Shown: piece after piece, positions 9,959 to 62,082 of the stretch
Layout of the letters: the number at the start of each line of letters is the position of its first letter
Numbering within the stretch: the stretch's first letter is position 1
From: Steroidobacteraceae bacterium
GTDB taxonomy: Bacteria; Pseudomonadota; Gammaproteobacteria; Steroidobacterales; Steroidobacteraceae
Direction: 5' to 3'
Length of the DNA stretch: 64,000 bases
Assembly (NCBI GenBank): GCA_044375575.1
Contig: JBILMJ010000010.1
Span: 2,282 to 66,281, forward strand
Translations under genes and position numbers: made by a program
The notes under the pieces: generated by a model
Told to the model about the DNA's origin: nothing
Database searches by the model: none
What the model saw: only the letters and a program-made list of their open reading frames with translations

Positions 9959-10010
9959 CGCTCTTTGCTCCTCAAAAATTGTCAGCTTATTGGTTGGCGC
10001 GAAGGAGGGG

Positions 10011-41905: not shown

Positions 41906-42023
41906 CGTCGACCTCTTCAACAACCGTCACAAAGATTGACTTATCTTTGTACCGCCATTGAAGTACGCCCTAAAGGCCGTTACCAGTGAAGATGCGTGAA
42001 GATTGGCAAAGTTCTCGACAGGA

Positions 42024-43325
42024 CTAGTCTCGTATTCCGAGGGCAGACATCCACTTGGCAAACCGTCGCTGATCGAACGCATTGTCGTCGCGGAGGTCGT
42101 CGAAGAGTCGATCGATCTCCGCGCGCTTGACTCGATCGCGCTTGAGGCCGGCCAAGATCACCACCATACCCATGGCGGCCTGCTCCGCTGCCGCAGGGTC
42201 GGGAAACTCACCTCGACGTGCGGCCTCGACGAGGGTATCGATGACCGCGTTCATCTGCGCGGCAGACCAAGTCATCGAGCTCGACTGCCGCTCGACAGCG
42301 GACAAGGCCTCTCGGGTTTGCGTCAACGCCATCCGCAATGACGCCGCATCCCCGTGTGCCGCTTTCTGCAATGCCACGATCGCGCGGTCGAGATCCGAGC
42401 TTGCTGCCAAAGGCAACGCAGCCACAACGCGCTGCAATACCAGAAGATGAGCGTCCTGCCATCGCAGTGCACCAGGTTCAGTGCCGGTGGCACTTGCGCT
42501 GCCCCATGCCGTCATTCGCAGATCGCGGTGACAGGAGTGACACGCGAACACCCCAAAGTCGGGAATGGGGCCAAGTCGACCTGTTCCATGCTGTTCGATG
42601 AGCTTCAACTGCCGACGGGACGACGCGACGAGCCCGGCGATCCACAGAGACGGGGCATTCTTCCCGGAGTCACGAGGGTAATGTTCGCGCCCGCCGCTCG
42701 TACGCCATAACTCGCGATAGGTATCGAGTTCGAAGACGAGTCTCGGGTGACCCGCCGCCATCATGCGATGGGTGGCAAAGCGATCTTGATCCCCGACGTG
42801 GCATGCAAGACAGGTACCCGCGAGTACCTCGGGCCTTTCCAACGCACGCAGTCCGTTGGAAAGATTGTCACGCCGCGACACCTTCGGACTCTGATGGTGC
42901 GTCGCCAGCCATTTCTCTGCGCCACCATGACAGGCCTCGCAACCGATGCCATCTTCGAGCTGGAATCTTGCGCCGCGCTGTGCGGCAGGCACCGCATCGG
43001 CATGACACGCCAGACACGCCGCCTCCTGATGGGCCGGGCCAAGACCCATCCGTCGTACGATCTCTTTCGACTGCGCATTCAGCAGCGTCTTGTACGCCTT
43101 GGAATGCGGATCGAACTGCGACCACGTGGTGTACTCGTTCTGAAACGCACGGTCGTAAACTTTGAGCGGCTGACTCGACCCATGGCATAGCGACGACGCG
43201 CAGGTGGCGACGCCCTCGTGACGCAGAGTGGGTTCTTCCGCTGCGACCCCGACCGTCACCCCGAATGTCGATACGGCGGCCACACTTGCAGCGACCCAAC
43301 TCCAACAAAGCCGTCCCCATGTCAT
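42024..43325 (-). CDS. Periplasmic/secreted multiheme c-type cytochrome (5 heme-binding motifs) with helical C-terminal domain
   Basis: The ATG at 43325 forms an ATGA overlap with the upstream stop. The signal peptide is MTWGRLCWSWVAASVAAVSTFGVTVGVAAEE. The heme motifs are CASSLCH (CX4CH), CLACH, CEACH, CLACH and CHSCH. Confidence 0.8.
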   Translation of the reverse strand: MTWGRLCWSWVAASVAAVSTFGVTVGVAAEEPTLRHEGVATCASSLCHGSSQPLKVYDRAFQNEYTTWSQFDPHSKAYKTLLNAQSKEIVRRMGLGPAHQEAACLACHADAVPAAQRGARFQLEDGIGCEACHGGAEKWLATHHQSPKVSRRDNLSNGLRALERPEVLAGTCLACHVGDQDRFATHRMMAAGHPRLVFELDTYRELWRTSGGREHYPRDSGKNAPSLWIAGLVASSRRQLKLIEQHGTGRLGPIPDFGVFACHSCHRDLRMTAWGSASATGTEPGALRWQDAHLLVLQRVVAALPLAASSDLDRAIVALQKAAHGDAASLRMALTQTREALSAVERQSSSMTWSAAQMNAVIDTLVEAARRGEFPDPAAAEQAAMGMVVILAGLKRDRVKRAEIDRLFDDLRDDNAFDQRRFAKWMSALGIRD

Positions 43326-46300
43326 CGCGTGGCTCTCCCTTTGACCGATTGCACCGCGGGAGTGTCCTCGACGAACCAAGGCTCGCCCTCGCTGTCGAGA
43401 TAGAGGCGCTGCATTTCCTGCAGGTTGAAGGGCCTTGACCCCCTGCGACCGAACACCGCGACTTGACCGCCACTCTCATCGACCGCGCGATCGCGCTCGA
43501 GCGGTCGCGAAAGGCTGAGCGCGGGTAACTTCGTCGGCTTGTACGCGATCAATTCCGGACGAGGCGCCGGACTGAAGCCATAAAAATTCGGTTGGGTCGA
43601 CGGGCTCGTCAGCTGCACCACCTTCAAGCCCCCTTTTCCATCTGCGACGTACGCGAATAACGACGCGTTGGTCGAGGCGATCATCACGTCACGCGAGTCG
43701 ACGAGTCGACCATCGGCATTCCATGACCGAACGAGACGCGGCGCATGCGGACGCTCGACATCGATGATCGCCATGCCTTCACGACCATTGGCGACATACG
43801 CATAAGTCCGCGCGACCGTGAACCCACCCGCTTGGGCGAGCGTAACCATTGCTTGCGGTAACTTGCGCGGACGCGCGGGTGAAGTGACATCGATCACCTC
43901 GAATCCGCGAGCCGTCGTAACGAAAAGATAACGAAACTGCAGCGCCACGGCGCGGGGCGATTCGAACGGTATCTCCGCGACGATCTTCGGAGTGCTCGGT
44001 ACCGACAAATCGGAGATGACGACTGCGCGATCGGTGACGACATAGGCAAGGTTGCCGGCGATGGTGAGATGACGGGCACCAGTCAATTTGCCGTCGGGGT
44101 TCCAGGTCACGAAGCGCTTGAGAAAGTTGTTCCTGAACTCACCATCGGCGAGCGTATTGATGTCGACCAGCACGAGCCCTTCGACGGCGTCCGTGATCAC
44201 CGCAAAGTTGTAGATCGGCAGGAACGGCTGCTCCAGATTGTCCTTGCGCATGAGGTCACCCTCGTTGCGCGGCGGATGGACGGGCTGAGTGGTGGCCAAG
44301 GCCACGCAGGTGGCATTCGCGGTCTTGACCTGCGTATCGTGACCGAGCGGCGAAAACGGCGCGCTGATCAATTTTTGGCTGATGCCCTTATTGGCGATTC
44401 CCGCGGCATCGAGTACACGCAGACCGCGTTTTCCCTCGGCAGAAAACACGTATTCGCCACGAAGCTGTACGCAGCCGACCGCATCACCCTTGAGGGCACT
44501 CAGCCGCGGCAGCTCACGATCTCGACCGAGATGGTCCGAGTACCACTTCGGATATGCGTAACGATGCAGGTAACTCCCGATGACCGCCTGCGGTTCATCC
44601 CACTCGGTGACCTCGATCGCCGTGACCCCACCCTCGGTGCCCACCCACGCGTTGAGCCCGGCGAAATTCATGAACTGCGTGCCGAAGCCCAGTGTCTGCG
44701 CCATGATGGCGTTGTTGTCGCTTTCTTTGGCCAGATGACAGTCGCTGCAGGTCTTGGTTTCGGTCTTGCGCTCGGTATGCGGATAATGCGCGTTCATCGC
44801 CTGCGAGCTGTATCCCGATGCCGCGATCGGCGGCTGCTGAACGTAAATACGTTCCCGGTTCGCGTTCGTCGAAGACAAGACGAGCGCGGATGATGAGCGG
44901 ACCGGCGCCATCTTCCCGCCTTCGCTCGGGCCACGCCAGCCGAGCATGAAGACATCCTCACGCAACACCTGCGGGTTGTAGGTTGCAAAGTTTCGTGTCT
45001 CTCCGCCTTCGTAACGATGGCGGGACGTCTTGGCGTTCGCCTCGATCGGCAGATGGCATCCCCCGCAGCTCGTGGTCCACGGGGTGTGACAGGTGTAGCA
45101 CTCCATCTTGTCGTCGTTGTGGGCGAGCATTGCCCACGGAATATCGGGTCCCCACCGCTGATTCTTGGCGTCCTTGGCCATGGTCTTCGCGCGCGCCGCT
45201 TTCGCGTTGTAATGAGCACTACCCGGCGTGACGCTGTCCTTCACTTGTGACACTTGCCACTCGAGGCCAGGGGTCACGGCCGATCTTTGAACGAGCGTAT
45301 CGCCGCGCCATTCGAATCGCAGCTTTCCATCAGGGTTACGAATGCGCGCGAGATCAGTGCCCGATTGCGGTGCGGCTGGCCCTGAGGTGCGCAGCGTTGC
45401 CGTCGCTGCGGTGGTGCCATGACAGTCCTTGCAATCGATTTCGACAGCTGCGGCGACGGATCCATGCAAATAACCGTTACCGTGAGAGTCCTGCGCAAAA
45501 TGACAATCGACGCAGTGCATGCCTACGTCGACATGAATCGAGGACATCTGTACGGTTTTCTTCCACTTCAGAGGATCGTCGTTCTCGATGATCCGACCCT
45601 CAGCGTCGAGCAGATTGCCCTGGCGATCCCGCTTGTGTACCGCACGGAAGTTCCATCCGTGTCCGTGGTAATCGGCGAATTGCGTGTCTTTCAATTGCGG
45701 GTTGAGCTCGCTCACGCCCTTCAGGAACTCGAGGTCCGCCCACTTCCCTCGCGGTGCTGCACCCTCAGGATTTCGGTCGAGTACCTGCCGAATCTTCTCC
45801 GGCGTCGGGAACTGTTGTTCAGACGGCCACATGGCCGGAGCATCTGACTCGTAGTCCCACATCGTGTAGCCGAGGAACGAGTTGATGAACATGTTCGGCT
45901 GATGCATGTGGCAGATCATGCATTGGCTGGTGGGAATAGAACGGGTGAAGGCGTGGGTCAGCGGGTGCCCACTCTGATCTTTGGGAATCGTCGGATCCAA
46001 AGTTTGCGTCCGACCGTCATGCCCGAATTTCGCATAAGGGCCGGAGTGTCGTGGATCGCGATCGTTCGCATAGACGACATGGCAACTCGTGCAGCCTGAC
46101 GATCGGAAATCGCCAGGATTGTCGTTGGTACCCATAAACCACATCAGCGGATCGTTCAAACGGGTCTTGTGAATATTGAGCACCGGCACGGCGATTCTTC
46201 CGCCCGTGCCCGGCCCACGATTCGACTGCTTGATGTCCGGCCGCCCGGGCTCCTCGAGTCGTTGAATTTGACCTAGTGCGTTGGGTATCCCGGTTTCGGG

Positions 46301-47092
46301 AAACAGATTGGTGATGTTGCGACCGCCACGCTCGAACGCCCTGAAGATATCGGCGGGTGGCAAGTTTTCCCATCGAGGTAAGGGATAGATTCGCTCGACC
46401 AACTCATGGCGGTCGCGCTGCTCGGCGGTCGTCTTCGCGCCCTCGAGAATGGCGGCCTCTCCGTCCTTTGTGTAGCTCTCGCCGAGGATGTAATTTTTGA
46501 ACGGTAGCAGCCCATTGTTGTAGGCCGCGCCTCCCCAGAACATCGTCGCAGTCGCCATCAGACTGCGTTTGGCATCGGCGATCGTGCGCGCATGACATGC
46601 ACCGCAAGCATCATCGGCGGCGCGGTAGTCACCCGGGTTCACGAAGCGGATGAATTCGTTTGCTTCCTTATTCAGCAATGCATAGGTGCGCTCGGGATTG
46701 GCGCTCGACGGGTGATGCCAGGCAGATGGATACTTGGGCAACACGTGGGCGGCGTCTCGCGCAGCCGCATAATTGGGATCTCGCCGTTGAGTGTCCCGGT
46801 CGTTCGATCCAATCCATCGAATGCTCGCCGAACCACCGTGGCAGTCCGTGCAGCCGAGTACGACACCCGGATTGGCGTGCATCGTCGGTTGATCCGTCTT
46901 GGTGTGACAGTCGTTGCAGCCTGCACTTTTCGCCGCTGCCTCATCGAGTGTCTGTTTCGCGGGCGCCGGAGCCGCGGTCAAATACGTCCGCGCGACCGCC
47001 TTGAAACCTTCGGCCGAAGTGGCCACGTCGACGGATCCCGACAACAGAGCGAGACCTGATAGCGCGAACATTGCCGTGACGATTTTTTTCAT
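43322..47092 (-). CDS. Giant secreted decaheme c-type cytochrome fused to a C-terminal LVIVD-type repeat (beta-propeller-like) domain
   Basis: 1256 aa. The signal peptide is MKKIVTAMFALSGLALLSGSVDVATSAEG. Ten CxxCH motifs (CNDCH, CTDCH, CGACH, CTSCH, CMICH, CVDCH, CKDCH, CYTCH, CGGCH, CSDCH) lie in the first roughly 800 aa. The last roughly 400 aa carry repeats such as GLRVLDAAG, GLVLVDINT, AYVVTDRAVVISDLS, LFVTTARGFEVIDVTSP, AYVANGREGMAIIDVERP and AYVADGKGGLKVVQLTSP. Confidence 0.8.
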   Translation of the reverse strand: MKKIVTAMFALSGLALLSGSVDVATSAEGFKAVARTYLTAAPAPAKQTLDEAAAKSAGCNDCHTKTDQPTMHANPGVVLGCTDCHGGSASIRWIGSNDRDTQRRDPNYAAARDAAHVLPKYPSAWHHPSSANPERTYALLNKEANEFIRFVNPGDYRAADDACGACHARTIADAKRSLMATATMFWGGAAYNNGLLPFKNYILGESYTKDGEAAILEGAKTTAEQRDRHELVERIYPLPRWENLPPADIFRAFERGGRNITNLFPETGIPNALGQIQRLEEPGRPDIKQSNRGPGTGGRIAVPVLNIHKTRLNDPLMWFMGTNDNPGDFRSSGCTSCHVVYANDRDPRHSGPYAKFGHDGRTQTLDPTIPKDQSGHPLTHAFTRSIPTSQCMICHMHQPNMFINSFLGYTMWDYESDAPAMWPSEQQFPTPEKIRQVLDRNPEGAAPRGKWADLEFLKGVSELNPQLKDTQFADYHGHGWNFRAVHKRDRQGNLLDAEGRIIENDDPLKWKKTVQMSSIHVDVGMHCVDCHFAQDSHGNGYLHGSVAAAVEIDCKDCHGTTAATATLRTSGPAAPQSGTDLARIRNPDGKLRFEWRGDTLVQRSAVTPGLEWQVSQVKDSVTPGSAHYNAKAARAKTMAKDAKNQRWGPDIPWAMLAHNDDKMECYTCHTPWTTSCGGCHLPIEANAKTSRHRYEGGETRNFATYNPQVLREDVFMLGWRGPSEGGKMAPVRSSSALVLSSTNANRERIYVQQPPIAASGYSSQAMNAHYPHTERKTETKTCSDCHLAKESDNNAIMAQTLGFGTQFMNFAGLNAWVGTEGGVTAIEVTEWDEPQAVIGSYLHRYAYPKWYSDHLGRDRELPRLSALKGDAVGCVQLRGEYVFSAEGKRGLRVLDAAGIANKGISQKLISAPFSPLGHDTQVKTANATCVALATTQPVHPPRNEGDLMRKDNLEQPFLPIYNFAVITDAVEGLVLVDINTLADGEFRNNFLKRFVTWNPDGKLTGARHLTIAGNLAYVVTDRAVVISDLSVPSTPKIVAEIPFESPRAVALQFRYLFVTTARGFEVIDVTSPARPRKLPQAMVTLAQAGGFTVARTYAYVANGREGMAIIDVERPHAPRLVRSWNADGRLVDSRDVMIASTNASLFAYVADGKGGLKVVQLTSPSTQPNFYGFSPAPRPELIAYKPTKLPALSLSRPLERDRAVDESGGQVAVFGRRGSRPFNLQEMQRLYLDSEGEPWFVEDTPAVQSVKGRATR

Positions 47093-47102
47093 GGATGTCG
47101 GA

Positions 47103-48890
47103 TCAATAAGTCAGTACGAGGTTACCGAGCACGGCGTAGGACAAATCATCGGCAAAAAGGTCACGGTATCCCTCGCCGGAAACCAAGGTCGCAACCGACA
47201 GTCGCCCGACGACGTTTTGTATCGCAAGCGGTCGCCAAATCACCGAAATCGAGGCGTCGACGCCGATCTCCTTGTCGATGTCGCCCTGAGCGCGCGCCAC
47301 ACGCAAGGTGGCGGTGTCCACGAATTGCAGCCAGTTGATATTGGTGCTCACGCGGAGCGTGGGTGTCAGGTCGATGTCAGCTCCGACCCCGATAAGTGCC
47401 AAACCCGGATTGGCGAAGTTGGACTGACCAAACTCTTTAGATGAGCGAAGCGAATTCAGCATTCCATTTCGACCGGACAGCGATACACGCCCACCGCCGA
47501 TCAGCGGCACCGGCTCGCGTATCCAGAAACTGGTATCAGCTCCCGCAAAGAGCGGGTTTTCAAAAATGGCATCGAAGCCTTCACCTCGCCCGTCGAACGG
47601 GTCCGAGTCACCCGATCCCCATGCCACGGAACCACGGAGACGCACCCACGAGTAGTCCTTCGAGAGCTCTGCGGCGAAGAACGAGGCGCGGATTCTTTGC
47701 GGCCGATCGACGAATGTCCCGCGCTCCGCTTCGCCGATCGCATAGTAAGCCGAGGTGGTGAGATTCAGTCCGCCCAGATACCCGTCACCCGAGACGCCGA
47801 GATACGTGACGTCGTAGTCGCCAGACCTTTCGATACCGATCGACGAGGGTCTCTGGATGATGCCGTTGTCGTCGTATTGAATCTGCCCGCCTTCGCGATT
47901 CCGGTTGTGAATCGCAGTGACTTGCGTGAAGAAACCGGGTGTCGGCCAGTCTTGCACGTACAGATTGGCCGCAAACACGTCGTCGTCTCGGAATGACGCA
48001 AGTCCACGAGAGAAGACGTCGTTCAATCCGCTGTTGGTGTCTTTGTCGAGTCGTCGGAACCAGGCCAGGTTGTACTGATAGCGATTGCTCGAGCGGATGC
48101 CAAACAACCGAGCCCCAAACATCGCATCGTTCAACAAAAAACCTCGAAAGTCGGATGTGAACGGCTGGATGCCTATACGGATACTGTCGAAGTCGTAGTT
48201 CGGCGATACGTTTCGCAGATGGCGGTCGACGAAGGCGGCCTGCAATCCGACTGCCGAGTCGTAGCGCACCGTTGAGGCATCTGCGGGCGCCCGCAGCAAG
48301 CCGCGCTCGTCCGCCGAGACTCGGGTGAGATTGAACGCAGGAGTGAAGCGGAACTCCCAGTCGGGCGGCTTGAACGTGGTGTTGCCCTGGTACAGGACCG
48401 TTTCGATCGCGAAAGTCTGTGCCCAGATCTCGGTTTTCGGACTTCCGAAGGTGTCCGTGGATCCGGGTCGCGCCGTCACGGGGCCGCCGACCGGCAACGG
48501 AAACGAACGTGGCTCGAACACGGTATCGGACGTCGCAATGAAGGCGAGATACCAGTCTTCGCCAAACATCGGGCGATCACCTTTGAGCCGATTGTACCCG
48601 TGGTACGGATCGAGCAAATTTTCTTTGATGCCGATCGCTTCGACGATACGCCATCGGTCCAGAAACCCCTGCAGCGAGCCGATTTCCTCCATCGGTGCCG
48701 GCGATATTCGTGAGGGATCACAAGGATCTGGCTCATACGGGATGACCGGCACCGTCGGGCTTCGCCGACCGGACTCGATCGGTGCCGGAGATGGGCATGG
48801 CTCCTCCGCCCTTACCGAGCCGATGAGCACCGCGCCGAGTAGAGCCGGAAGCCAAGCGCGATCAAAGACCACTGCAGGGCTCCTGTTCAT
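47103..48890 (-). CDS. Outer-membrane beta-barrel protein candidate (porin partner of the cytochromes)
   Basis: The ATG at 48890 gives a signal peptide (MNRSPAVVFDRAWLPALLGAVLIGSVRAEEP). The sequence is long, has alternating polarity and is Gly/Tyr/Asp/Asn-rich. The C-terminus ...VLGNLVLTY ends in an aromatic residue, as expected for a BAM substrate. No family was identified by eye. Confidence 0.5.
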   Translation of the reverse strand: MNRSPAVVFDRAWLPALLGAVLIGSVRAEEPCPSPAPIESGRRSPTVPVIPYEPDPCDPSRISPAPMEEIGSLQGFLDRWRIVEAIGIKENLLDPYHGYNRLKGDRPMFGEDWYLAFIATSDTVFEPRSFPLPVGGPVTARPGSTDTFGSPKTEIWAQTFAIETVLYQGNTTFKPPDWEFRFTPAFNLTRVSADERGLLRAPADASTVRYDSAVGLQAAFVDRHLRNVSPNYDFDSIRIGIQPFTSDFRGFLLNDAMFGARLFGIRSSNRYQYNLAWFRRLDKDTNSGLNDVFSRGLASFRDDDVFAANLYVQDWPTPGFFTQVTAIHNRNREGGQIQYDDNGIIQRPSSIGIERSGDYDVTYLGVSGDGYLGGLNLTTSAYYAIGEAERGTFVDRPQRIRASFFAAELSKDYSWVRLRGSVAWGSGDSDPFDGRGEGFDAIFENPLFAGADTSFWIREPVPLIGGGRVSLSGRNGMLNSLRSSKEFGQSNFANPGLALIGVGADIDLTPTLRVSTNINWLQFVDTATLRVARAQGDIDKEIGVDASISVIWRPLAIQNVVGRLSVATLVSGEGYRDLFADDLSYAVLGNLVLTY

Positions 48891-50862
48891 TCGAGTCGAG
48901 GAACGGTGCTTGCGGACAACTGACGTATCGCAATCGCGCGCCGTTCGGCACAAGCTGATCCGAACGTCGGCTGAGCGGCGCATTATTTGGCGCAGCGCTT
49001 CCCGTCAATCCCGAACGCGCCACCCCGAGAAACGCGACCATATCGTCCTGATCGACGCCGTCACCGGAGACACCGACCGCACCGACGAGTTGGTCGCCTC
49101 GGTAGATCGGTACCGCACCCGGGAAAATCTGTATGCCATTCGCCAAAATACGAGCAGCTCCCGTCACCGCAAATCCGCGATCGAATCCGCCCACGCCGCC
49201 ACACTGGCTCGGTGTATCCGTCGTGAGCCCACGTACGAACGCTACATGCTGAATGACGGCGTTATGTACGAGGTCCATCTGCAATCCCGTATTGAGAGGA
49301 CTCCACTGCCCTGGGGCACGCGAGAGCGGACCAAATGGATTTCCGTCCACGCCGTCGGGATAGTTCGGGCGGGCGAGATTGCCGATCGCACGCGCAGAAA
49401 ATGCCGTGGCACCATCGGCAAGTACATTCGGAAGTCCGAGAAAACGTCGGAGCGCGGTGACGTATTGCCCCAACGATTCCTCGCGCAAACGAACCAGGGT
49501 GCGATCGAGGTAAACCGCTGGCGGCAGCGCATTCAATCGATCGGCAGCCGTCGTCGAGGAGAGAAACGCCGCACCGCGAGCCTTTTGCACCGAGACGTCG
49601 ATGCCGAACACCGGTGCATCCCGTGACCGAACGAGCCCTAAGATCTCTCCCTGCGAATCGACCACCGAGATCGACACCCGTGCAGGTGTGTCGAGTGGGC
49701 GACGAATCTGCGCCCGACTTCGATTCGCCACGCGCAGCGCGCTCGACAAAATCGCGCGCACCTCGTTGGCCGTCAGTGCCGAGGCGCCGTCCGTTCCCGA
49801 GCGAGGACGATAACGCTCGTTTCCGACCGTATCGACGAGCACGAAAGCATCGAGTCCCGGGTAGTCCTGACTATCCGCCCGAATTCCGGAACGCGCCTGA
49901 CCGAATGCAGTCCCTGCGCGAACCGACATACCGTTATAGCCCGACACCTCAACGAGCTGCCCTGCGCTACCCTTCAAAGATTCGAAGGCGGGCGGCGCGT
50001 CGATCCGCGAGCGAAGATCTTCAGCGCGGATATCGCTAAATCGTAAGGTCTTGCCATCGGCGGTGATGCGGTCTGCTCGACGATCTTCAGGCGCGGCCAA
50101 TGCACCCGCTGCCGCAAACGCCACCGCCTCGTCGGTATCACGGTCGATGTCGAGCACGTTTTGATCGATTCCGTACACCGCATCGACGACGACACCCACG
50201 CCGCCCACCGGTGTCCCCGATCGATACAACGGGAAACCGCCGGGATCGCCCGCAAGACCGAGTGGCGATCGTTTGGGACCCGCATCGGCCTCAACAGACG
50301 CCTGACGCATGGAGACGTCGGAGCACGGAAGTTGGCTGAACTGAACACCGAACAACGGTCCGCTCGGCGTCAATAACTCGCCCGGATTGAAATGCGACTG
50401 GATGATTTGGCTCGCCGTACGCGTGCTGAACGCATTGCCTTCGCTCGAGAGGTAAGCGCCGGTCACGGCCTTGGCAATTGCTGCCATCGTCGCAGGAATC
50501 ACCTCGACGTTCTCGAAGCCACCGCTCACCGACAGTGCGGATACATCCGGAGTCCGCATCGTTACGTTTTCGAGTGCGCCGGTCATACGAAAGACGGCCA
50601 GCACGTTTCCGACACGATCGACTACGGCAATGGTCGCCTTGACACCCCTCGCCTGCGCCTCGGCCACACCGCGAGAAATAACTGTTTCGACATCATTGAT
50701 CGTTAGGAACGTGCCGGCGTTCGCGCAGCTTCCATCACAAAAGGCGGAGCCTGAGGGAGATGTCGCAGATCCATTGACCGTCGTAGTTGGCGTGCCGGAA
50801 CCCCCGCCACCGCAGGATACGAGCAACGCTGCGCATATCGACGTCAACGTCAAGCGTCTCAT
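48862..50862 (-). CDS. Lipoprotein with two GlcG/DUF336 (HbpS-like, heme/tetrapyrrole-binding) domains
   Basis: The ATG at 50862 forms an ATGA overlap with the upstream stop. The lipobox is AALLVSCGGGGSG. Domain 1 reads GVKATIAVVDRVGNVLAVFRM...GGFPLYRSGTPVGGVGV. Domain 2 reads RVSISVVDSQGEILGLVRS...SVQKARGAAF...GAVPIYRGDQLVGAVGVSGDGVDQDD. Confidence 0.65.
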   Translation of the reverse strand: MRRLTLTSICAALLVSCGGGGSGTPTTTVNGSATSPSGSAFCDGSCANAGTFLTINDVETVISRGVAEAQARGVKATIAVVDRVGNVLAVFRMTGALENVTMRTPDVSALSVSGGFENVEVIPATMAAIAKAVTGAYLSSEGNAFSTRTASQIIQSHFNPGELLTPSGPLFGVQFSQLPCSDVSMRQASVEADAGPKRSPLGLAGDPGGFPLYRSGTPVGGVGVVVDAVYGIDQNVLDIDRDTDEAVAFAAAGALAAPEDRRADRITADGKTLRFSDIRAEDLRSRIDAPPAFESLKGSAGQLVEVSGYNGMSVRAGTAFGQARSGIRADSQDYPGLDAFVLVDTVGNERYRPRSGTDGASALTANEVRAILSSALRVANRSRAQIRRPLDTPARVSISVVDSQGEILGLVRSRDAPVFGIDVSVQKARGAAFLSSTTAADRLNALPPAVYLDRTLVRLREESLGQYVTALRRFLGLPNVLADGATAFSARAIGNLARPNYPDGVDGNPFGPLSRAPGQWSPLNTGLQMDLVHNAVIQHVAFVRGLTTDTPSQCGGVGGFDRGFAVTGAARILANGIQIFPGAVPIYRGDQLVGAVGVSGDGVDQDDMVAFLGVARSGLTGSAAPNNAPLSRRSDQLVPNGARLRYVSCPQAPFLDSNEQEPCSGL

Positions 50863-52553
50863 TCTCGTACCGTCGCCTGTCGAATCCATTTTGGCTCGCG
50901 CTCATCGTGGTACACGTGACACGTCGCGCAGGGACTCGCGATCTTTTGCTCGCCACCTTCCGCGCCGGTCTCACCACCATGACAGTCGCGGCAGACCTTG
51001 ATCGATGGCATCAACACGTCGCTCGATAACTTAGACTCTTGTGCTGCATGACAGGTCTCACAGGTCGCCTGTCCCGATGCGTGAGCTGCGTGGTCGAAGC
51101 GCGCTTTCGGCATGAAATGCTGGGTGAGTTTGACCGGAGCGACGATCCACGCGGAGTCGTTCGTCGTCCCCGTTCGAGTGACCGCATGGCACTCGGCACA
51201 CGCTCTGCGCTCGAAAAGATCGGTCGCGACCTGGTTGGCACGCTGCTTGGCATTGCCTAAAAGCCGTGCACGCGCAGCGGCACTCAAGGAGGCCCCCGGC
51301 GGCGTCACCCCATCGACTACCGCCAAAGAATCACTGTATCCGCTCAGATAACGGCGACTGTAATGATCGACCAGCGTCAGCAAGACGAGCTTCGGATCAC
51401 CGTGTGGCACTTGGCGCTGCGGTTCTGCCGGATCGAACCCTAATGAGTGACACGTCCCACAGTGTCGCTCCATCGTAATCTTTTCGAAGCCGCGCCCACT
51501 CTCGTTCGACACATGACAATCGGCGCAGCCCATCACGACTTGGCCCTGCGGAGCCTTGATCCCCTTCGGGTCGAGATGTGCAGCGTGTGTGAATACGAGA
51601 TCGGACCGCTCCACCAGCGCCGCTCCACCAAGACGAGCGCGCGTGACGCGCCAATCGGGTGCCGTCAGCAGGCTGATTTGAAACTCCGGATGCTGCAATA
51701 CGAAGTCGGTGACCGGCATCGTTTTCTTCCCGATGCCGTGATCGGCGGGCTCCGAATGGCAATCCGTACAGAGTCGAGTGTCGCGTTGTACGAGGTTCGA
51801 TGGCTGATCGTGCTCGACGTGACAACTCGTACAACGCGCCGCCGTCATGTCCGCCACCGCAGGGTGATTGGCTGGAACGTGCTGATGCAATGTGGCAGCG
51901 TGGCACTCTAGACACTGCTCATTTCGGACGCGTCGAAAGGACTGTACGTGACAGGCCTCGCATTCACCCTCGAGGTTACCGTGCGCAGAATGCAGCGCAC
52001 CCGAACTCCACTGCTGATCACTCGGTAGCACACTCGCCCGTAACCACGAAGCCGAGGCATCGCCCTTCGCGACGAATAACCACGGCAAGATCAGCCCCAG
52101 CAGCAACGTGACCGTGATGCCGATCCACGCCCACGGTCGCCTGCGCCAACCCACCTCTTCGAGGGTCGTTGCGAATTTCGGCATCGGTGCGTCGTCTGCA
52201 ACCGTCGACTCTCGGGCGTCGCGCTCCACCGAGATCGCCGCATCAACCTCCAACGGTACCTCGAGCACCTTGATCAGCATCGGCCCGAGGCTGACTTCAT
52301 CTCCGACCTTCAGGTTCGCACTGCGACAGAGTCGTCCGTTGACCTCCGCTTGGGCGGGAGGGATGCAGGACAACAACAATCCGCCGTCAGATCGCGCAAA
52401 CCGCGCATGCTGCAACGCAATGCGGGGATCGTTGCACTGAATCGACTGATCGGTCGCGCGTCCGAATCCGATCGACTCGGCATCGACGATTCGGTCACGG
52501 GTCGCCTTCACGCCGGACGACCCCATCTCTATTGTTCGAATCAGGAGACGCAT
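50859..52553 (-). CDS. FHA domain - single TM - periplasmic decaheme c-type cytochrome
   Basis: The ATG at 52553 gives MRLLIRTIEMGSSG. The FHA-like block is IGFGRATDQSIQCNDPRIALQHARFARSDGGLLL...VNGRLCRSANLKVGDEVSLGPMLIKV. The TM segment is WAWIGITVTLLLGLILPWLFVA. It then has ten CxxCH motifs (CEACH, CLECH, CTSCH, CTDCH, CADCH, CGTCH, CAECH, CETCH, CRDCH, CATCH), with c3/c7-like FxHxxH contexts. Confidence 0.8.
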   Translation of the reverse strand: MRLLIRTIEMGSSGVKATRDRIVDAESIGFGRATDQSIQCNDPRIALQHARFARSDGGLLLSCIPPAQAEVNGRLCRSANLKVGDEVSLGPMLIKVLEVPLEVDAAISVERDARESTVADDAPMPKFATTLEEVGWRRRPWAWIGITVTLLLGLILPWLFVAKGDASASWLRASVLPSDQQWSSGALHSAHGNLEGECEACHVQSFRRVRNEQCLECHAATLHQHVPANHPAVADMTAARCTSCHVEHDQPSNLVQRDTRLCTDCHSEPADHGIGKKTMPVTDFVLQHPEFQISLLTAPDWRVTRARLGGAALVERSDLVFTHAAHLDPKGIKAPQGQVVMGCADCHVSNESGRGFEKITMERHCGTCHSLGFDPAEPQRQVPHGDPKLVLLTLVDHYSRRYLSGYSDSLAVVDGVTPPGASLSAAARARLLGNAKQRANQVATDLFERRACAECHAVTRTGTTNDSAWIVAPVKLTQHFMPKARFDHAAHASGQATCETCHAAQESKLSSDVLMPSIKVCRDCHGGETGAEGGEQKIASPCATCHVYHDEREPKWIRQATVRE

Positions 52554-52557
52554 GGAT

Positions 52558-53427
52558 TCACCAGTAGAGGAACACGCTGACCACATGTGCGATCAACGTA
52601 CCGAGCAGCGCCAAGGTCACCGGGACGTGGACGTACAGCCAGATTTCGAGCCAACCGCGGATCTGGGCATCGCGACACAGTCGACGCAGATGATTTCGAC
52701 GCGTGGCGATCACGCTGAGCAGATCGCCGATTCGCCGCGTCGCGTCACCATCGGTACTGCGGGCAAGCTCGTCCCCGAGCCACGTGAGTAACGCCGCTTG
52801 CTCAGCATTGGAAACCCGTGTCGAATCGCCGGCCGCGTTGGGCAAGTCGATCATGGAAAGATCGCGTCCCCGTAAAATAGCGATGGCACTTCCGCCGAGG
52901 CGCGTTTCCTCACGATTGGAGCGCAGCGCATCACCGAAACGGCGCGGCATGTCGCGGGCGATACGAAATGCGCGCTGATCGAGGTCGTCGATTTCTTCGA
53001 GGAGCAGATCGGGCTTGCGGCCTGCCCGGTTAGCCGACATCAACTTCGGATAGCGTAGATATACGATGAGCCCGAAGATGCCGCTTGCGATCACGATCAA
53101 CATGAGCGCGTAGCACAGCGTATGCAGATTCCAACCGAACTGGAATCCGGTGTGGAGCGTCACCACGACGATGAGTGCCAAACCAAGATAGACATGCGCA
53201 CTCGTCCATCCGCGCAGCGTTCCGAGCGAAGACGAGTAACTGCGCTTTCGAACGCCGAGCGCCGTCAACCAAAGAATGAGCGCAGCGCCAACTCCGCCGA
53301 GCGTATAGCCCAACCATGTTCCACCGTTCGGCGGCGACATCGGGTCGTGCCACGCATACGCCACGACCGAAGCGAAGCACAATCCGAGGGCGATTTTCAG
53401 ATAGCGTCGGCTGGCGTATTCAAGCAT
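52558..53427 (-). CDS. Integral membrane protein, predicted di-heme b-type cytochrome (two H-x13-H helices)
   Basis: The ATG at 53427 (MLEYASRRYLKIALGL...) lies 14 nt after the upstream stop. There are about 5 TM segments. TM3 is SAHVYLGLALIVVVTLH and the last TM is YVHVPVTLALLGTLIAHV. Each carries two His residues exactly 13 residues apart. A cytoplasmic loop of about 130 aa separates TM4 and TM5. Confidence 0.55.
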   Translation of the reverse strand: MLEYASRRYLKIALGLCFASVVAYAWHDPMSPPNGGTWLGYTLGGVGAALILWLTALGVRKRSYSSSLGTLRGWTSAHVYLGLALIVVVTLHTGFQFGWNLHTLCYALMLIVIASGIFGLIVYLRYPKLMSANRAGRKPDLLLEEIDDLDQRAFRIARDMPRRFGDALRSNREETRLGGSAIAILRGRDLSMIDLPNAAGDSTRVSNAEQAALLTWLGDELARSTDGDATRRIGDLLSVIATRRNHLRRLCRDAQIRGWLEIWLYVHVPVTLALLGTLIAHVVSVFLYW

Positions 53428-53441
53428 CGACTCGTGCACGT

Positions 53442-55892
53442 TCAGAACCTCGACGCTTCCTGCTGCACGAACGTCACGAACTCCTCGGGGCTCACGCGCA
53501 ATGCCGCGCCGGTCGGACACGCCCGTACACACGCCGGACCGCCGTCCTGCCCCTTGCACATATCGCACTTGACGGCTTTTTTGACGGTCTTTGGCGCTCC
53601 GTGTGTATCGCCTTGAACGTGGTGCTGCTCGCGACCGAGCCCACGAACCTCGCCGAATACATCGCCCTTTTCACCGCCGAACAAAAGCCATGACACGAGA
53701 GAAGGCGACTCGGTGGGCGGCCCCGCCATCTGGATCACCCCGTAGGGGCAATTGCGCTCGCAGTTTCCACAACCGATGCAGTTGTCGCCGACGAATACTT
53801 CACCGTTCGGCGAGCGCCGAATGGCATCGGGTGGACAGTCCTTCATGCAATGCGGGTCTTCGCAGTGCCGACAGGACGTTGGTACATGAACGTTCGCAAA
53901 GGTTGGCCCTGCGGCTCGATCGAGGCGAGACGTCCCGCCATGCGTGGCGGCACAAGCCCTTTCACAGTTATCGCATCCGATGCACAAGGCTTCGTCGATC
54001 AACAGTACATCGGTGGCTTCGCCAAGACCTTGCTTCAGCAAAAACGAAATGAGTTCGCCTGCATTATCTTGTCCCTGCAGCCGGGTGTTACTCGCCACGC
54101 GCTGTCGTACGGTTTCCTCAAGCTCGGCACGCAAAGCCGGATTCTGTCGTAACAATTCGGCGAACGTTTCGGCATCGAGGCTGATCGTTTCGGTCGCGAC
54201 CGTTGCTCGTACCGTCGCACTACGACGGGTGCCCCCCATCAACCCCATCTCGCCGACGTAGTTGCCGGCGGCAACGTATGACATGACGATCTCGCGACCG
54301 CCGAGGGCTCGCAGCACGGCGAGCGAACCGCTGCGTACGAGATGGAGCGTATCGGCCTCGTCACCCTCGCTGAATAAAACCTGTCCGGCCTTGTAACGAT
54401 TCAATTTCGATTTGGCGGCGATAGGCAGCAAGTCCGCCGTCTTCGCCTGCGGCGCAAATCCGCTCTGGATGGCGCGTACGATGAAGGTCTGATCGATCAC
54501 GAGACGCGCGGCATCGACCGAGTTCAAGAGCTTCAAGATATCCCGTCGAGGCGTCTCGATCAGCACGCACTCCTTGCCGGCGATGACTGTCGCCGTACGA
54601 CGACGACCGGACAGCAGCCCCATCTCGCCGAAAAACTGACCCGCCACCAAAGGAATTCGGACGTTCGGGCGATTGTCGTCGATCTGTATCTCGACGCCGC
54701 CGGCAAAGACGGTGAAGAATGAGTTGGTGTAGTCGTTACGCTTGAAGACGATGTCACCAGCATTCAGCACGTGGATCGTGCTCCCGAGCATCAGCTCGCG
54801 GAACATCAGCGGATTCACCTCAGTGAACAGAGGAATCTGCCGCTGCATCGCCTGCAGAGTGTCGGTCACCGACCGGTGCCCGGGAATATTCGAAAACTTC
54901 GCCGCAAGCAGCGGCTCGTCGGCGGGCGCTATCGAAATCCCGCGGATGAATTCCACGACTTCGTATCCCTGATTCATCGCCTGTTTGATGAGGGGATAGC
55001 CTCCCAATGCACCAATCACATAGAGCCCAGGAACGTTCGACTCATAAGACGACGACAACACAGGGAGCGATGCGGCATCACTCGACGGAAACTCGATCCC
55101 GCAGGACTCGATGAACTTTCGCGGTGGCGTGGCGCCGAGTCGAGCAATGATTCGATCGCAGGGCAATTGCATTTCGCCGGTGGATGTATTCAGCGTCAAC
55201 GAATACGGTTTTTCTCCACCCGGGCTCTCTGCCAACGACACACACTGGGTCGAATAGAGACAGGCAACTTTTTCGGCTTCAATATGTTTGAGAATGAGCG
55301 CGAGGTTGCCGTCCTTGCACCGCGAGAACTCACCCGACCGATTGACGATATACACCGTGTTTTGCTTCGAGAGCGCGACGGCATTCTCGATCGCGGCGTC
55401 ACCTGCGCCCACCACGACGATGGTTTCGTTTTTGTATTCATCCGGATCGTCGAGCGAGTACTGCACGCAGGGCAGCCCTTCGCCGGGGATACCGAGCAGG
55501 CGAGGATTTCCTTGAAGGCCGATGGCGAGCACGACGTTTTCGGCCGAGACGGCACCGCCGTCACGCAAGCGAAGTTGGAAGTCCCCGCGAGCGCCCGTTA
55601 TCGCGACCACCTCGGCGCCATGGCGGATATCGACCGCATGCTCCTCGAGACCGCTCGCCCATTCCTCCAGAATTCGTTCGCGGCTACCCGCCGCGAAACG
55701 CATCGAACTGCGCAGCGGAAGTACGTTGGGCTCGGCCATGACGTGCTTGTTCTTCTGGTATCGATGGATCGTGTCCGCATGCGCGGCGGACTTTTCGAGC
55801 AGGACGTGCGAGACCCCCGTTTCGGCGGCGCGCGCAGCAGCGCTGAGGCCGCCCGGCCCCGAGCCGACCACGGCGACGGTAACTTTGGTCAT
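53442..55892 (-). CDS. Fusion protein: FAD/NAD(P)-dependent pyridine-nucleotide-disulfide-type oxidoreductase, 2 cyclic-nucleotide-binding domains and a 4x[4Fe-4S] ferredoxin module
   Basis: The ATG at 55892 gives MTKVTVAVVGSGPGGLSAAARAAE (first dinucleotide fold). TIVVVGAGDAAIENA is the second. The cNMP blocks are FFGEMGLLSGRRRTATVIA and YVGEMGLMGGTRRSATVRA. The Cys clusters are CIGCDNCERAC, CRHCEDPHCMKDCP, CIGCGNCERNCP and CDMCKGQDGGPACVRACP. Confidence 0.8.
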   Translation of the reverse strand: MTKVTVAVVGSGPGGLSAAARAAETGVSHVLLEKSAAHADTIHRYQKNKHVMAEPNVLPLRSSMRFAAGSRERILEEWASGLEEHAVDIRHGAEVVAITGARGDFQLRLRDGGAVSAENVVLAIGLQGNPRLLGIPGEGLPCVQYSLDDPDEYKNETIVVVGAGDAAIENAVALSKQNTVYIVNRSGEFSRCKDGNLALILKHIEAEKVACLYSTQCVSLAESPGGEKPYSLTLNTSTGEMQLPCDRIIARLGATPPRKFIESCGIEFPSSDAASLPVLSSSYESNVPGLYVIGALGGYPLIKQAMNQGYEVVEFIRGISIAPADEPLLAAKFSNIPGHRSVTDTLQAMQRQIPLFTEVNPLMFRELMLGSTIHVLNAGDIVFKRNDYTNSFFTVFAGGVEIQIDDNRPNVRIPLVAGQFFGEMGLLSGRRRTATVIAGKECVLIETPRRDILKLLNSVDAARLVIDQTFIVRAIQSGFAPQAKTADLLPIAAKSKLNRYKAGQVLFSEGDEADTLHLVRSGSLAVLRALGGREIVMSYVAAGNYVGEMGLMGGTRRSATVRATVATETISLDAETFAELLRQNPALRAELEETVRQRVASNTRLQGQDNAGELISFLLKQGLGEATDVLLIDEALCIGCDNCERACAATHGGTSRLDRAAGPTFANVHVPTSCRHCEDPHCMKDCPPDAIRRSPNGEVFVGDNCIGCGNCERNCPYGVIQMAGPPTESPSLVSWLLFGGEKGDVFGEVRGLGREQHHVQGDTHGAPKTVKKAVKCDMCKGQDGGPACVRACPTGAALRVSPEEFVTFVQQEASRF

Positions 55893-61362: not shown

Positions 61363-61387
61363 CAGTTCATTACTCTTCGGAGACTCG

Positions 61388-62059
61388 TCACGCAGGGAAC
61401 TTGAGTGCACCGGAAATGCGGATCCCGGCCCCATCCACCGCGTACTGCTTGTTGATGAAAATCAGGATCGACGTCATCGCCTCGGCGGCTGCAGAGTTGG
61501 CCAGGGCACCGCCGTGGATTCCTCGAAGACCACAGGCCTGTACCAGACGAATGACGGACTCGCGCGCTGCCTTGTCATCTCCGAACACGAGCACGTCGCA
61601 ATCGACCGTCGCATCAGATGCAAGCTTGAACGCTGCGACATTGTGAAATGCCGATACGACACGTACGCCCTCGCCGAGTATTTTTTGGGCGCGCACAGCG
61701 GCACTACCCTCGAGCGGCAGTTGCACTCGCATGACCTTCGGCGGTACCAGCGGGACGGTGGTGTCGACAACGATCTTGCCCGCGACGTGCGGACTGATGT
61801 CACCCAGCGTCGACTCTTGCGAGGCAAAAGGCACGGCAAGGATGACGATATCTCCCTGAGCGGCCGCCTCCACGTTGGTGGCAGCACGAACATCGGTCTT
61901 GCACTCTGCGGTGAGCAGCTCCGCCGTCGCCTGCGCCTTGAGTACATCGCGCGATCCGATGATCACTCGCTCCCCTGCTTTGGCAAGCCGTCGAGCGAGT
62001 GCAGAACCCAAATCGCCTGTTCCGCCGATGACCGCAATGCATTGACCCTGATCAGACAT
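61388..62059 (-). CDS. npdG: NADPH-dependent F420 reductase (Npd family)
   Basis: The ATG at 62059 gives MSDQGQCIAVIGGTGDLGSALARRLAKAGERVIIGSRD (Rossmann fold). It is about 223 aa, the typical Npd length and pattern. The upstream 58 codons of the track ORF are rejected. Confidence 0.7.
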   Translation of the reverse strand: MSDQGQCIAVIGGTGDLGSALARRLAKAGERVIIGSRDVLKAQATAELLTAECKTDVRAATNVEAAAQGDIVILAVPFASQESTLGDISPHVAGKIVVDTTVPLVPPKVMRVQLPLEGSAAVRAQKILGEGVRVVSAFHNVAAFKLASDATVDCDVLVFGDDKAARESVIRLVQACGLRGIHGGALANSAAAEAMTSILIFINKQYAVDGAGIRISGALKFPA

Positions 62060-62082
62060 GCCGAACTCCCGAACCAAGACCG

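Follow-up and report, generated by a model that had tools for sequence, protein, structure and literature searches.

A widespread, so far unnamed gene cluster predicted to encode a two-module multihaem redox system in Steroidobacteraceae and other bacteria

Do seven adjoining genes in a Steroidobacteraceae genome encode one continuous path for electrons between the cytoplasm and the outer membrane, and if so, in which direction and by what kinds of protein would the electrons be carried? The question is raised by genes A to G on the minus strand of a 64,000-nucleotide (nt) stretch of DNA (GenBank assembly GCA_044375575.1, contig JBILMJ010000010.1), hereafter the window, which an earlier note, made from the letters alone, had described as a self-contained trans-envelope electron conduit. 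Here we report that the operon is real, widely conserved, and so far unnamed. Its parts are familiar kinds of redox protein, and their combination, namely a flavo-iron-sulfur (FeS) dehydrogenase with cyclic-nucleotide-binding (cNMP) domains, a dihaem b protein, an FHA-anchored decahaem cytochrome, a GlcG lipoprotein, an AlgE-like barrel, and a decahaem-propeller fusion, is new as far as we found. By gene content the cluster is a variant among the porin-cytochrome systems, with a predicted function. It is composed of two modules, A-B-C (inner) and (G)-D-E-F (outer), and the model that we tentatively favour is a multihaem redox system in which these two modules would carry electrons out of the cytoplasm and deliver them to an outer-membrane site. 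Its predicted cytoplasm-to-periplasm half, formed by A, B, and C, is well supported by sequence; what we infer is which way the electrons flow, which proteins touch, where F and D are placed, and what accepts the electrons.

Gene order, conservation, and modularity of the cluster

The seven open reading frames (ORFs) run from position 55892 down to 42024 in the order A-B-C-D-E-F-G, as established from the ORF list and direct translation, with junctions of +14, +4, -4 (ATGA), -29, +10, and -4 (ATGA) nt from A to G (Table 1). These overlaps and short gaps suggest that A to G are translationally coupled. The encoded proteins contain 25 haem-c motifs, 24 of the CxxCH and one of the CxxxxCH type, with ten in C, ten in F, and 4+1 in G, where the CxxxxCH motif stands at residue 42. 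Frames, strand, junctions, and motif count are all as first described, and the domains that had been assigned to A to G by eye all hold in the Pfam and NCBIfam profile searches, compared with curated cutoffs, on which our domain calls rest.

Relatives of E occur at confirmed loci in at least 590 species genomes, found in a scan with one genome per species that used two search patterns, both from the loop of E at amino acids (aa) 441-492. In the protein collection, homologues of E form more than 7,700 90% clusters, the best 120 of which are unnamed or labelled "hypothetical", and homologues of F are likewise. The gene neighbourhood, whose survey the earlier note had proposed, proved to be conserved: A-B-C-D-E-F are collinear on one strand in 45 of the 49 loci with enough flanking DNA. 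The least fixed cluster member, G, directly follows F in 33 of 44 loci. Ten CxxCH motifs are present in 61 of 63 homologues of C and in all 66 homologues of F; all 46 homologues of G have four CxxCH motifs, its CxxxxCH is invariant, and all five motifs are invariant in 47 sequences. The conserved haem counts and gene order thus point to an arrangement beyond chance. Median identity to the window proteins is highest for F (63%), followed by A (58%), E (55%), D (54%), B (46%), G (36%), and C (34%).

The carriers named in these searches include Steroidobacteraceae, Acidibacter, Woeseiaceae, Halioglobus, Parahaliea, Colwellia, Thalassotalea, Dokdonella, Lysobacterales, Alcanivoracaceae, and Sphingomonas, and those in culture include Colwellia sp. 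BRX10-3, Thalassotalea sp. ND16A, Parahaliea aestuarii, P. mediterranea, Sediminihaliea albiluteola, and Sphingomonas sp. ERG5. The nearest loci, at 89% and 80% identity, lie in metagenome-assembled genomes (MAGs) labelled Gammaproteobacteria and Steroidobacteraceae, respectively. Loci L004, L030, L033, and L072 (54-89% identity to the window version) come from MAGs labelled Klebsiella pneumoniae, Flavobacterium, Patescibacteria, and Verrucomicrobiia; these are probably mis-binned contigs whose labels would not name real hosts, and the Klebsiella label, borne by one of the contigs at 89%, is implausible. An exact-sequence look-up of the window E returned no record.

That the cluster matches no described conduit had been put forward by the earlier note, and three lines of evidence bear this out: the scored Mtr, DmsE, and Ext models all stay below their curated cutoffs, the homologues inspected are generically named or "hypothetical", and no description was found in the literature. 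For Colwellia and Sphingopyxis, RefSeq uses the generic labels "cyclic nucleotide-binding domain-containing protein", "cytochrome c3 family protein", "multiheme c-type cytochrome", "heme-binding protein", and "hypothetical protein". A full-text literature search, to which most subscription journals are closed and whose silence is no proof, returned no published description of the cluster. LVIVD repeats and multihaem cytochromes appear together in one paper, which describes an unfused LVIVD protein in Tenderiales (10.1101/2022.05.06.490989).

Two sphingomonad loci expose the joint between the modules. The A-B-C block is inverted relative to G-D-E-F in Sphingomonas sp. ERG5, and the megaplasmid pMC4 of Sphingopyxis indica carries G-D-E-F and, within 14 kb of it, none of A, B, and C. 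The term "self-contained" thus applies in part: A to F are usually collinear, but sphingomonads carry G-D-E-F without A-B-C nearby. Six divergent loci with upstream DNA, whose contexts were read with hidden Markov models built from the seven families, extend this pattern, since E lies directly upstream of F in five of them (L085, L086, L088, L089, and L090), which argues that E and F are a functional pair. In L089, from a Planctomycetota MAG, D is also present and F has a lipobox-like LWGC; in L088, from a Candidatus Xenobia MAG, B comes after F; and in L087, F-G is followed by an A homologue without flavin domain (cNMP and FeS parts only), then by B and C. The F relative of L086 (2927-7873) is a protein of 1648 aa with 28 CxxCH motifs, whose N-terminal ~520 residues match the haem domain of C. 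This natural C-F fusion argues that C delivers electrons to F. Because A-B-C are collinear in the 45 loci, inverted as a block in Sphingomonas, and found again after F-G in L087, we consider them a unit. E-F is thus the deep core of the system with D and G as frequent partners, and A-B-C is a separable supply module that yet travels with the core across large distances.

The idea that D replaces the lipid anchor of F, and so would occur only where F is no lipoprotein, is contradicted by L089, which has D, E, and a lipobox-like F. In the same locus (1138-5208), D-E-F adjoin System II cytochrome c maturation genes (ResB/CcsB-like and CcsA-like).

Table 1. Genes of the cluster and features of their predicted products (positions in the window)
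Feature	Position	Strand	Extent	Description
Gene A	53442-55892	-	816 aa	Flavoprotein (thioredoxin-reductase/YpdA-like) fused to a pair of cNMP-binding domains and a ferredoxin domain with four [4Fe-4S] clusters
A, FAD/NAD(P)H-binding domain	54966-55880	-	aa 5-309	Pfam coordinates; GSGPGG and GAGDAA motifs in translation
A, two cyclic-nucleotide-binding domains	54123-54785	-	~aa 370-590	Pfam cNMP_binding; cassettes FFGEMGLLSGRRRTATV and YVGEMGLMGGTRRSATV
A, four-cluster ferredoxin domain	53493-54017	-	~aa 626-800	DmsB/HybA/AegA-like; Fer4_11, Fer4_7, Fer4_9, and others
Gene B	52558-53427	-	289 aa	Five-helix inner-membrane protein, predicted dihaem b-type cytochrome
Gene C	50859-52553	-	564 aa	FHA-like domain at the N-terminus (cytoplasmic), then a single transmembrane helix (aa 144-162) and a decahaem c domain in the periplasm
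C, FHA-like domain	52284-52466	-	aa 30-90	Pfam PF00498, 26 bits, cutoff 20.7
Gene D	48862-50862	-	666 aa	Lipoprotein, lipobox LVSC, two GlcG/HbpS-like (DUF336) domains
Gene E	47103-48890	-	595 aa	Signal peptide, ~110-aa N-terminal extension with two conserved Cys, predicted 18-strand AlgE/OprD-fold barrel, C-terminus ...NLVLTY
E, conserved loop	47415-47570	-	aa 441-492	…FAGADTSFWIR…GGGRVSLSGRNG…LRSSKEFGQSNF…; candidate pore-constriction or partner-binding loop
Gene F	43322-47092	-	1256 aa	Sec signal peptide without lipobox, ten CxxCH spread over ~800 aa, LVIVD propeller, conserved tail
F, multihaem domain	44603-47014	-	aa 27-830	Conservation profile
F, LVIVD beta-propeller	43505-44647	-	~aa 816-1196	Predicted local distance difference test (pLDDT) mostly 80-97; Pfam LVIVD
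F, C-terminal tail	43325-43504	-		Conservation 0.62-0.71, low pLDDT
Gene G	42024-43325	-	433 aa	Signal peptide, cytochrome c554-like domain (4 CxxCH and 1 CxxxxCH), ~170-aa C-terminal domain of unknown type

The genes on either side are unrelated, and we therefore delimit the unit as A to G. Two sets of neighbours were considered as members and rejected, as they are unrelated by Pfam and not among the conserved flanking genes of related loci: the downstream genes for a beta-lactamase/esterase fusion, an esterase, and a SPOR protein, and the upstream gene for a 447-aa protein of unknown type. The window genes that flank the cluster also include one for an alcohol-dehydrogenase-like protein. No promoter or terminator signals stand out inside the cluster or at its ends, and positions 41924-42023 of the window, just after G, contain no terminator-like hairpin. 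The esterase/beta-lactamase fusion gene (39677-41923) starts ~100 nt downstream of G on the same strand, and read-through into it is possible; it too is absent from the conserved flanking genes of related loci.

The inner module: a predicted route from flavin to periplasmic haem

Protein A combines three kinds of domain in one chain. Its flavin part matches the Pfam families Pyr_redox_3 (4e-28) and Pyr_redox_2 (3e-27), and the NCBIfam model YpdA at 118 bits, below cutoff; no redox CxxC was seen in this domain on reading the sequence. The cNMP part matches cNMP_binding in two stretches (4e-37, 126 bits), and the ferredoxin part matches several Fer4 families, with partial matches to the NCBIfam models AegA, ArrB, HydN, and DmsB that are all below cutoff. 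The glycine motifs for flavin adenine dinucleotide (FAD) and NAD(P), as well as all four Cys groups, are kept in 58 homologues. A hydropathy scan gave no hydrophobic segment in A, and no signal peptide was seen at its N-terminus, on which grounds we place it in the cytoplasm.

The cNMP domains are positioned between the flavin and FeS parts of A, just where one would expect a switch to sit. Conservation is almost complete in the first cassette and looser in the second, and FGE…R[ST]A is kept in both domains. The cyclic-nucleotide input that had been proposed for the chain is thus well supported, both by these retained cassettes (FGE...R[TS]A) and by the cyclase genes that adjoin the cluster in some genomes. 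CHASE2 cyclase genes do so in ~9 loci, and a Slam-like gene (SlipAM 21.9 bits, cutoff 22) in ~10. In L003 (1-2991), L001 (1-2927), and L022 (260-3237) the cluster is preceded by genes for a CHASE2 adenylate/guanylate cyclase, a TPR and Slam-like barrel protein, and a FecR-domain protein. We rejected this CHASE2 cyclase/FecR/Slam-like set as a part of the system and class it as accessory, as it occurs in only ~10-17 of 83 loci and has no member in the window; these three genes possibly provide the source of the cyclic nucleotide sensed by A and a lipoprotein-surfacing factor.

Protein B has five helices by hydropathy, with H78-x13-H92 on helix 3 and H267-x13-H281 on helix 5, and H78, H92, H102, H267, and H281 are invariant in 68 sequences. 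It has no family in Pfam or NCBIfam at E <= 0.01. Weak matches to PF01292 (prokaryotic cytochrome b561) recur in all 11 members of the B family tested, the best at 9e-6, with DUF4405 in four; the window protein itself scores 15.7 bits against PF01292, below the gathering threshold of 30.1. Ferric_reduct was matched by one of the 11 (E-value 0.26), and a distant homologue of B also gives a faint match. A profile search for the fold of B among PDB sequences was discarded, having returned only chance matches to a soluble loop. The ~130 aa between helices 4 and 5 form a basic loop, and an invariant RKR loop is also present; by the positive-inside rule, the N-terminus and this ~130-aa insert are probably cytoplasmic. 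The predicted topology thus places one haem near each membrane face. This is the geometry of a transmembrane electron carrier, with its haem ligation predicted from the paired histidines.

The haem domain of C is matched by the Pfam families Cytochrome_C7 (1.5e-14), Cytochrom_c3_2, and Paired_CXXCH_1, and the single hydrophobic segment of the protein lies between its FHA and haem domains. The FHA domain is poorly conserved across 64 sequences. By our own motif reading, made without a reference alignment, the GR and H residues are kept, and the window and Colwellia versions have Ala at the canonical phosphate-binding Ser, three residues before the His. The C homologue of L001 also weakly matches Yop-YscD_cpl, a YscD-type FHA family that does not bind phosphopeptides. 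Poor conservation and the Ala at this position leave the phospho-threonine input that had been suggested for C a weak proposal. Genes for a PP2C phosphatase and a double-FHA membrane protein come after the cluster in 6-7 loci (L061 18428-19282; L039 17745-18770), and the gene for a Ser/Thr kinase with a PEGA domain adjoins a divergent E-F pair (L086 7889-9466); these neighbours are a hint of Ser/Thr phospho-signalling in the surroundings of the system, despite the degenerate look of the FHA domain in C.

According to the export model, A would oxidise NAD(P)H at its FAD domain, akin to the thioredoxin-reductase-type ferredoxin-NADP reductases, and the electrons would run down its own four [4Fe-4S] clusters and then to B. 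There, two stacked bis-His b haems would be held by H78 and H267 on the cytoplasmic side and by H92 and H281 on the periplasmic side, and B would in turn reduce the ten c haems of C, which is anchored by a single helix and would face the periplasm. Cyclic nucleotide bound to the two cNMP domains of A would gate the flow. Running outward, electrons would be favoured by the membrane potential and would dissipate it, which would suit regulated electron disposal or delivery rather than energy conservation.

This route has its closest analogies in several known systems. In the inner-membrane cytochrome CbcL of Geobacter, a dihaem b domain of the FdnI/HydC type is fused with a periplasmic c domain that has nine haems, and B with C reproduce this arrangement as two proteins. 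In the Tmc and Hmc complexes, one transmembrane path links a multihaem cytochrome in the periplasm, through a b-type cytochrome in the membrane, with an FeS protein in the cytoplasm. In formate dehydrogenase-N, the four-cluster ferredoxin FdnH sits on FdnI, a dihaem b subunit that shares its broad clan with PF01292; A and B resemble this pair turned to face the cytoplasm, which is an analogy and no family membership. By sequence score the FeS and cytochrome proteins of the cluster stay outside these families: HmcB reaches 34.8 bits (cutoff 420), DsrO 43.5 (200), and QrcA 39.1 (180), and the FDH-beta match is partial and below cutoff. In contrast to both the Tmc/Hmc complexes and FdnH-FdnI, the FeS domain of the cluster is cytoplasmic and fused to a flavoprotein and cNMP domains, and no CCG-type subunit is present. 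In NADPH oxidases, ferric-reductase-domain proteins, and Fre-MsrQ, electrons pass outward from NAD(P)H to flavin and then to two stacked bis-His b haems with His-x13-His spacing. Unlike NADPH oxidase and Fre-MsrQ, B has five helices instead of six, a four-cluster FeS domain is interposed, and the acceptor is a multihaem cytochrome and not O2 or MsrP.

The regulatory domains of A and C bring in another explanation, that the cluster is a redox sensor or signalling device in which the haem chain would inform the cNMP and FHA domains in the cytoplasm of redox conditions in the periplasm or outside the cell, or would signal in the opposite sense. Two cNMP domains and one FHA-like domain are indeed built into the chain, genes for CHASE2 cyclases, FecR-domain proteins, PP2C phosphatases, double-FHA proteins, and Ser/Thr kinases adjoin the cluster in subsets of genomes, and HbpS, the founding member of the family of D, acts in a redox-sensing system of Streptomyces. 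The outlay for such a purpose, with 25 c haems, two b haems, four FeS clusters, and one flavin, would be very high, none of the seven proteins has an output domain (DNA-binding, kinase, or cyclase) in Pfam or NCBIfam, and the regulatory neighbours are found in minorities of loci and not in the window. We regard a sensor as highly improbable.

The outer module and the proposed last step of electron transfer

Protein E has no match in Pfam or NCBIfam at E <= 0.01. AlphaFold2, run on a 45-sequence alignment, predicts 18 strands (pLDDT 66, predicted template modelling score 0.69), and the top 17 Foldseek matches of this model in the PDB are all AlgE (E 2.6e-15, target TM-score 0.65), followed by OccD/OprD porins and chitoporin. 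What had been a barrel candidate on the strength of its C-terminus is thus a predicted 18-strand outer-membrane barrel, as the beta-barrel check called for by the earlier note came out. Its best structural match, AlgE, is likewise an 18-strand barrel, but the cluster has no polysaccharide synthesis genes and E has an extra N-terminal region of ~110 residues. A role as an alginate or polysaccharide exporter was rejected, since E scores 11.7 bits against Alginate_exp (PF13372; cutoff 25.2) and no polymer genes are nearby. The loop at aa 441-492 has a mean conservation of 0.81, compared with 0.55 for the whole protein; it is of mixed charge and modelled at pLDDT <50. A rough estimate from strand alternation gives the lumen ~16 basic and ~11 acidic residues.

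The lipoprotein D matches the Pfam family HbpS-like in three stretches (1.6e-23), and its nearest solved relatives among PDB sequences are EfgA/GlcG and a "putative extracellular heme-binding protein"; the Sphingopyxis homologue is named 'heme-binding protein' by PGAP. A lipobox-like motif is present in 61 of 77 homologues. The residue at position +2 of the lipobox in the window protein is Gly, and D is therefore probably anchored in the outer membrane.

Protein F is the most conserved of the cluster. It matches LVIVD (5e-13) and c3/c7 families in Pfam, and the NCBIfam choice-of-anchor B model at 22.8 bits, below cutoff. Its haems are sparse, at about one per 80 residues, and aa 251-350 are 83-85% conserved with no haem motif before residue 334. 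A tail motif, R[DE]Rx[VI]DExGxQ…RxG[SGA]RP[LF]N, straddles the propeller boundary and persists among relatives of 38-43% identity; in full-length relatives, with identities of 38-51%, the haems, propeller, and tail are all retained. AlphaFold2, applied without haems, models the ~380-residue C-terminal propeller confidently and the haem part at pLDDT <50. An attempt to assign a fold to the haem domain was given up, as Foldseek matched the propeller only (generic WD40/YWTD/BamB-like), and a profile search of PDB sequences with this domain gave no relative at E <= 1. Among 1.84 billion representative proteins searched, the haem-domain family comprises 568 clusters at E <= 1e-30. The window F and nearly all proteobacterial F proteins are without a lipid anchor, and some divergent relatives are lipoproteins. 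Protein G matches the Pfam family Cytochrome_C554 (2.8e-11), and its nearest solved relative among PDB sequences is the Nitrosomonas cytochrome c554 (1.3e-4).

Like MtrCAB with CymA, the cluster has decahaem cytochromes and a barrel that could link inner-membrane electron transfer to the exterior. MtrB is a barrel of 26 strands that encloses MtrA. By strand number and fold we rejected E as a sheath of this kind: it has 18 strands and an AlgE/OprD-type fold, whereas the barrels of the MtrB/PioB family have 26-28. E gave no match to MtrB/PioB or ExtI, with the presence of these models in the libraries not confirmed. Against the MtrA/DmsE model (TIGR03508, cutoff 192.2), C scores 29.6 and G 17.6 bits, and against the MtrC domain model Mtrc-MtrF_II-IV_dom (cutoff 30), F scores 16.8 and G 17.5 bits; the window F, moreover, differs from MtrC in having no lipobox.

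The Geobacter Pcc and Ext systems are closer in layout, each with a small outer-membrane barrel gene beside genes for periplasmic and large multihaem cytochromes. Under the generic definition of a porin-cytochrome cluster drawn from Geobacter Pcc (PMC4245776), the locus qualifies, with the 18-strand E between C and D upstream and F and G downstream. At the sequence level, F scores 75 bits against ExtM (cutoff 800), through a single strongly similar haem motif of 48 residues, the only local link, and ExtN and ExtO reach ~21 bits (cutoff 200); models for OmaB, OmbB, and OmcB are possibly absent from the libraries, which makes the comparison by homology with Pcc incomplete. The Pcc and Ext systems lack a GlcG lipoprotein, cNMP and FHA domains, and a beta-propeller fusion, and the window F is no lipoprotein. 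The inner module here also differs in being fed by a cytoplasmic flavo-FeS protein, with no evident quinol oxidase.

A third comparison is with Cyc2, one polypeptide with a predicted 16-strand barrel and one haem at the pore, which handles a soluble substrate in the oxidative direction. Compared by description only, Cyc2 supplies the working logic that we favour for E and F, with the difference that barrel and ten-haem protein are separate here. Electrons would reach F from C directly or via the c554-like G, and F would sit in a tight complex with E and, in Proteobacteria, with the GlcG lipoprotein D, held at the outer membrane. The last step would be Cyc2-like rather than MtrCAB-like, because the barrel of E appears too small to enclose a wire of ten haems: the haems of F would reduce their acceptor, soluble or chelated, within the pore of E or at its mouth, with a metal chelate or an oxyanion as candidates. 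We place F at this pore because the barrel is small and AlgE-like, one of its loops is the most conserved part, and the window F has no lipid anchor. That D, E, and F would make up a specific complex or enzyme instead of a plain wire is suggested by their conservation, far above that of C and G, and by the sparse haems of F and its large conserved stretches without haem motifs.

The trans-envelope conduit proposed by the earlier note therefore stands for its first part and is doubtful for its last: transfer from the flavin and FeS clusters of A through the dihaem b protein to the decahaem C is plausible, and the crossing of the outer membrane is made questionable by a small AlgE-like barrel of 18 strands with no 26-strand sheath. 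The export model is in turn weakened by several points. The direction of flow is deduced solely from the nature of A and from energetics; the low-pLDDT model of the haem domain of F shows neither an active site nor a haem chain; B could react with quinone, as a cytochrome b of the FdnI or CbcL kind, with A and C joined via the quinone pool; and the A homologue of L087 has no flavin domain, so NAD(P)H would not be a universal donor. Lipoproteins among the divergent F relatives, the surface-typical LVIVD and choice-of-anchor-B similarities, the Slam-like gene that adjoins some loci, and the strand number of Geobacter porins count against it as well, and the same observations speak for a true trans-outer-membrane conduit.

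In such a conduit, part of F or D would be surface-exposed, and haems or another cofactor would bridge the outer membrane through E to reduce insoluble or extracellular acceptors such as Fe(III) or Mn(IV) minerals, electrodes, or humics. We consider this possible, though rather unlikely. A barrel gene conserved beside a large multihaem gene from phylum to phylum is the hallmark of porin-cytochrome systems, several divergent lineages have an F that is a lipoprotein, as are MtrC and OmcB, and the 25 haems would make a long wire. Two loci are assigned to Acidibacter, a genus with an iron reducer, and the Slam-like outer-membrane gene lies upstream in ~10 loci. LVIVD repeats together with choice-of-anchor-B similarity are typical of surface proteins (10.1101/2022.05.06.490989), and the Pcc porins of Geobacter are predicted to have 18-22 strands, so that a small barrel still fits a conduit (PMC4245776). 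On the other side, there is no family-level similarity to MtrA, MtrB, MtrC, or the Ext proteins, and a lipid anchor is missing from the window F and nearly all its proteobacterial counterparts. The 18-strand AlgE/OprD fold of E, with its highly conserved internal loop, is far from the 26 strands of MtrB, the only conduit barrel known to have been solved, and the cultured hosts (Colwellia, Thalassotalea, Parahaliea, and Sphingomonas) belong to genera of aerobic heterotrophs not known for mineral respiration.

Flow in the reverse direction would have F at the pore of E oxidise Fe(II), Mn(II), reduced sulfur, or a cathode, and pass the electrons via C and B to A, which would reduce NAD(P)+ or a ferredoxin-like acceptor, or to the quinone pool at B. 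This is improbable. It would fit the oxidative direction of Cyc2-type barrels and the resemblance of G to cytochrome c554, which in nitrifiers accepts the electrons of hydroxylamine oxidoreductase. Oxidation of metal sulfide or iron has also been proposed for Woeseiaceae and related Gammaproteobacteria (PMC6850669). Inward flow to the level of NAD(P)H, however, would need a very low-potential donor or an input of energy, for which the cluster has no energy-coupling subunit, and no carbon-fixation or lithotrophy genes are linked to it in the window. The cultured hosts, in addition, are from heterotrophic genera.

Possible significance and other observations in the window

In its broadest form the export model describes an unrecognised, cyclic-nucleotide-gated and quinone-bypassing export of electrons across the envelope, which would cross the outer membrane by a new barrel-cytochrome-lipoprotein complex of D, E, and F and would be present in many abundant aerobic heterotrophs and in other phyla. 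The hosts would be Woeseiaceae, relatives of Halioglobus and Parahaliea, Colwellia and Thalassotalea, Steroidobacteraceae, Dokdonella, sphingomonads, Planctomycetota, and Candidatus Xenobia. Taken as a whole, and with these hosts, we think this reading unlikely; were it true, marker-gene surveys would have overlooked extracellular electron transfer. Such surveys rely on a few marker families (Mtr, Pcc/Ext, Cyc2, and OmcS-type), and the cluster falls below the cutoff of each one scored. Its carriers number at least 590 species-level genomes, the metagenomic protein clusters run into the thousands, and several of the carrier groups are described as abundant in marine sediments. If electrons do leave the cell by this path, current estimates of how far the redox activity of common aerobic heterotrophs extends are too low, with a bearing on the cycling of iron, manganese, humics, and oxyanions, on iron acquisition, and on redox balancing under oxygen limitation. 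The chain would also be unusual in being fed from NAD(P)H and not from quinol, with a cyclic nucleotide that switches the dehydrogenase itself. Even under a more modest reading, a periplasm-facing reductase at a dedicated pore, the cluster defines three large protein families (B, E, and F), whose homologues are without a functional name.

Elsewhere in the window, positions 1-11000 are of low GC content (0.45-0.53, compared with ~0.60 elsewhere) and include the ORFs 1780-2946, 2943-4241, 5507-7231, and 7945-8913, all on the minus strand. Encoded here are a phosphoenolpyruvate phosphomutase-cytidylyltransferase fusion, a thiamine pyrophosphate enzyme that is probably a phosphonopyruvate decarboxylase, a methyltransferase, and a protein resembling Asp/Asn beta-hydroxylases; the region has the look of an island for phosphonate biosynthesis and was possibly acquired horizontally. 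The unusually long FlgK (1070 aa) and FlgE (1117 aa), encoded at 18252-21464 and 25273-28626 on the minus strand, adjoin this island, and their region could be a flagellar modification locus.

Upstream of the cluster, a 995-aa ORF (58447-61434, minus strand) reads, by translation only, as a fusion of CofC-like and FbiC parts, the latter an FO synthase with two radical-SAM halves. Its 5' end is overlapped by an ORF (61388-62233, minus strand) whose translation resembles an NADPH-dependent F420 reductase. Biosynthesis of coenzyme F420 would be unusual for a Steroidobacteraceae-like gammaproteobacterium.

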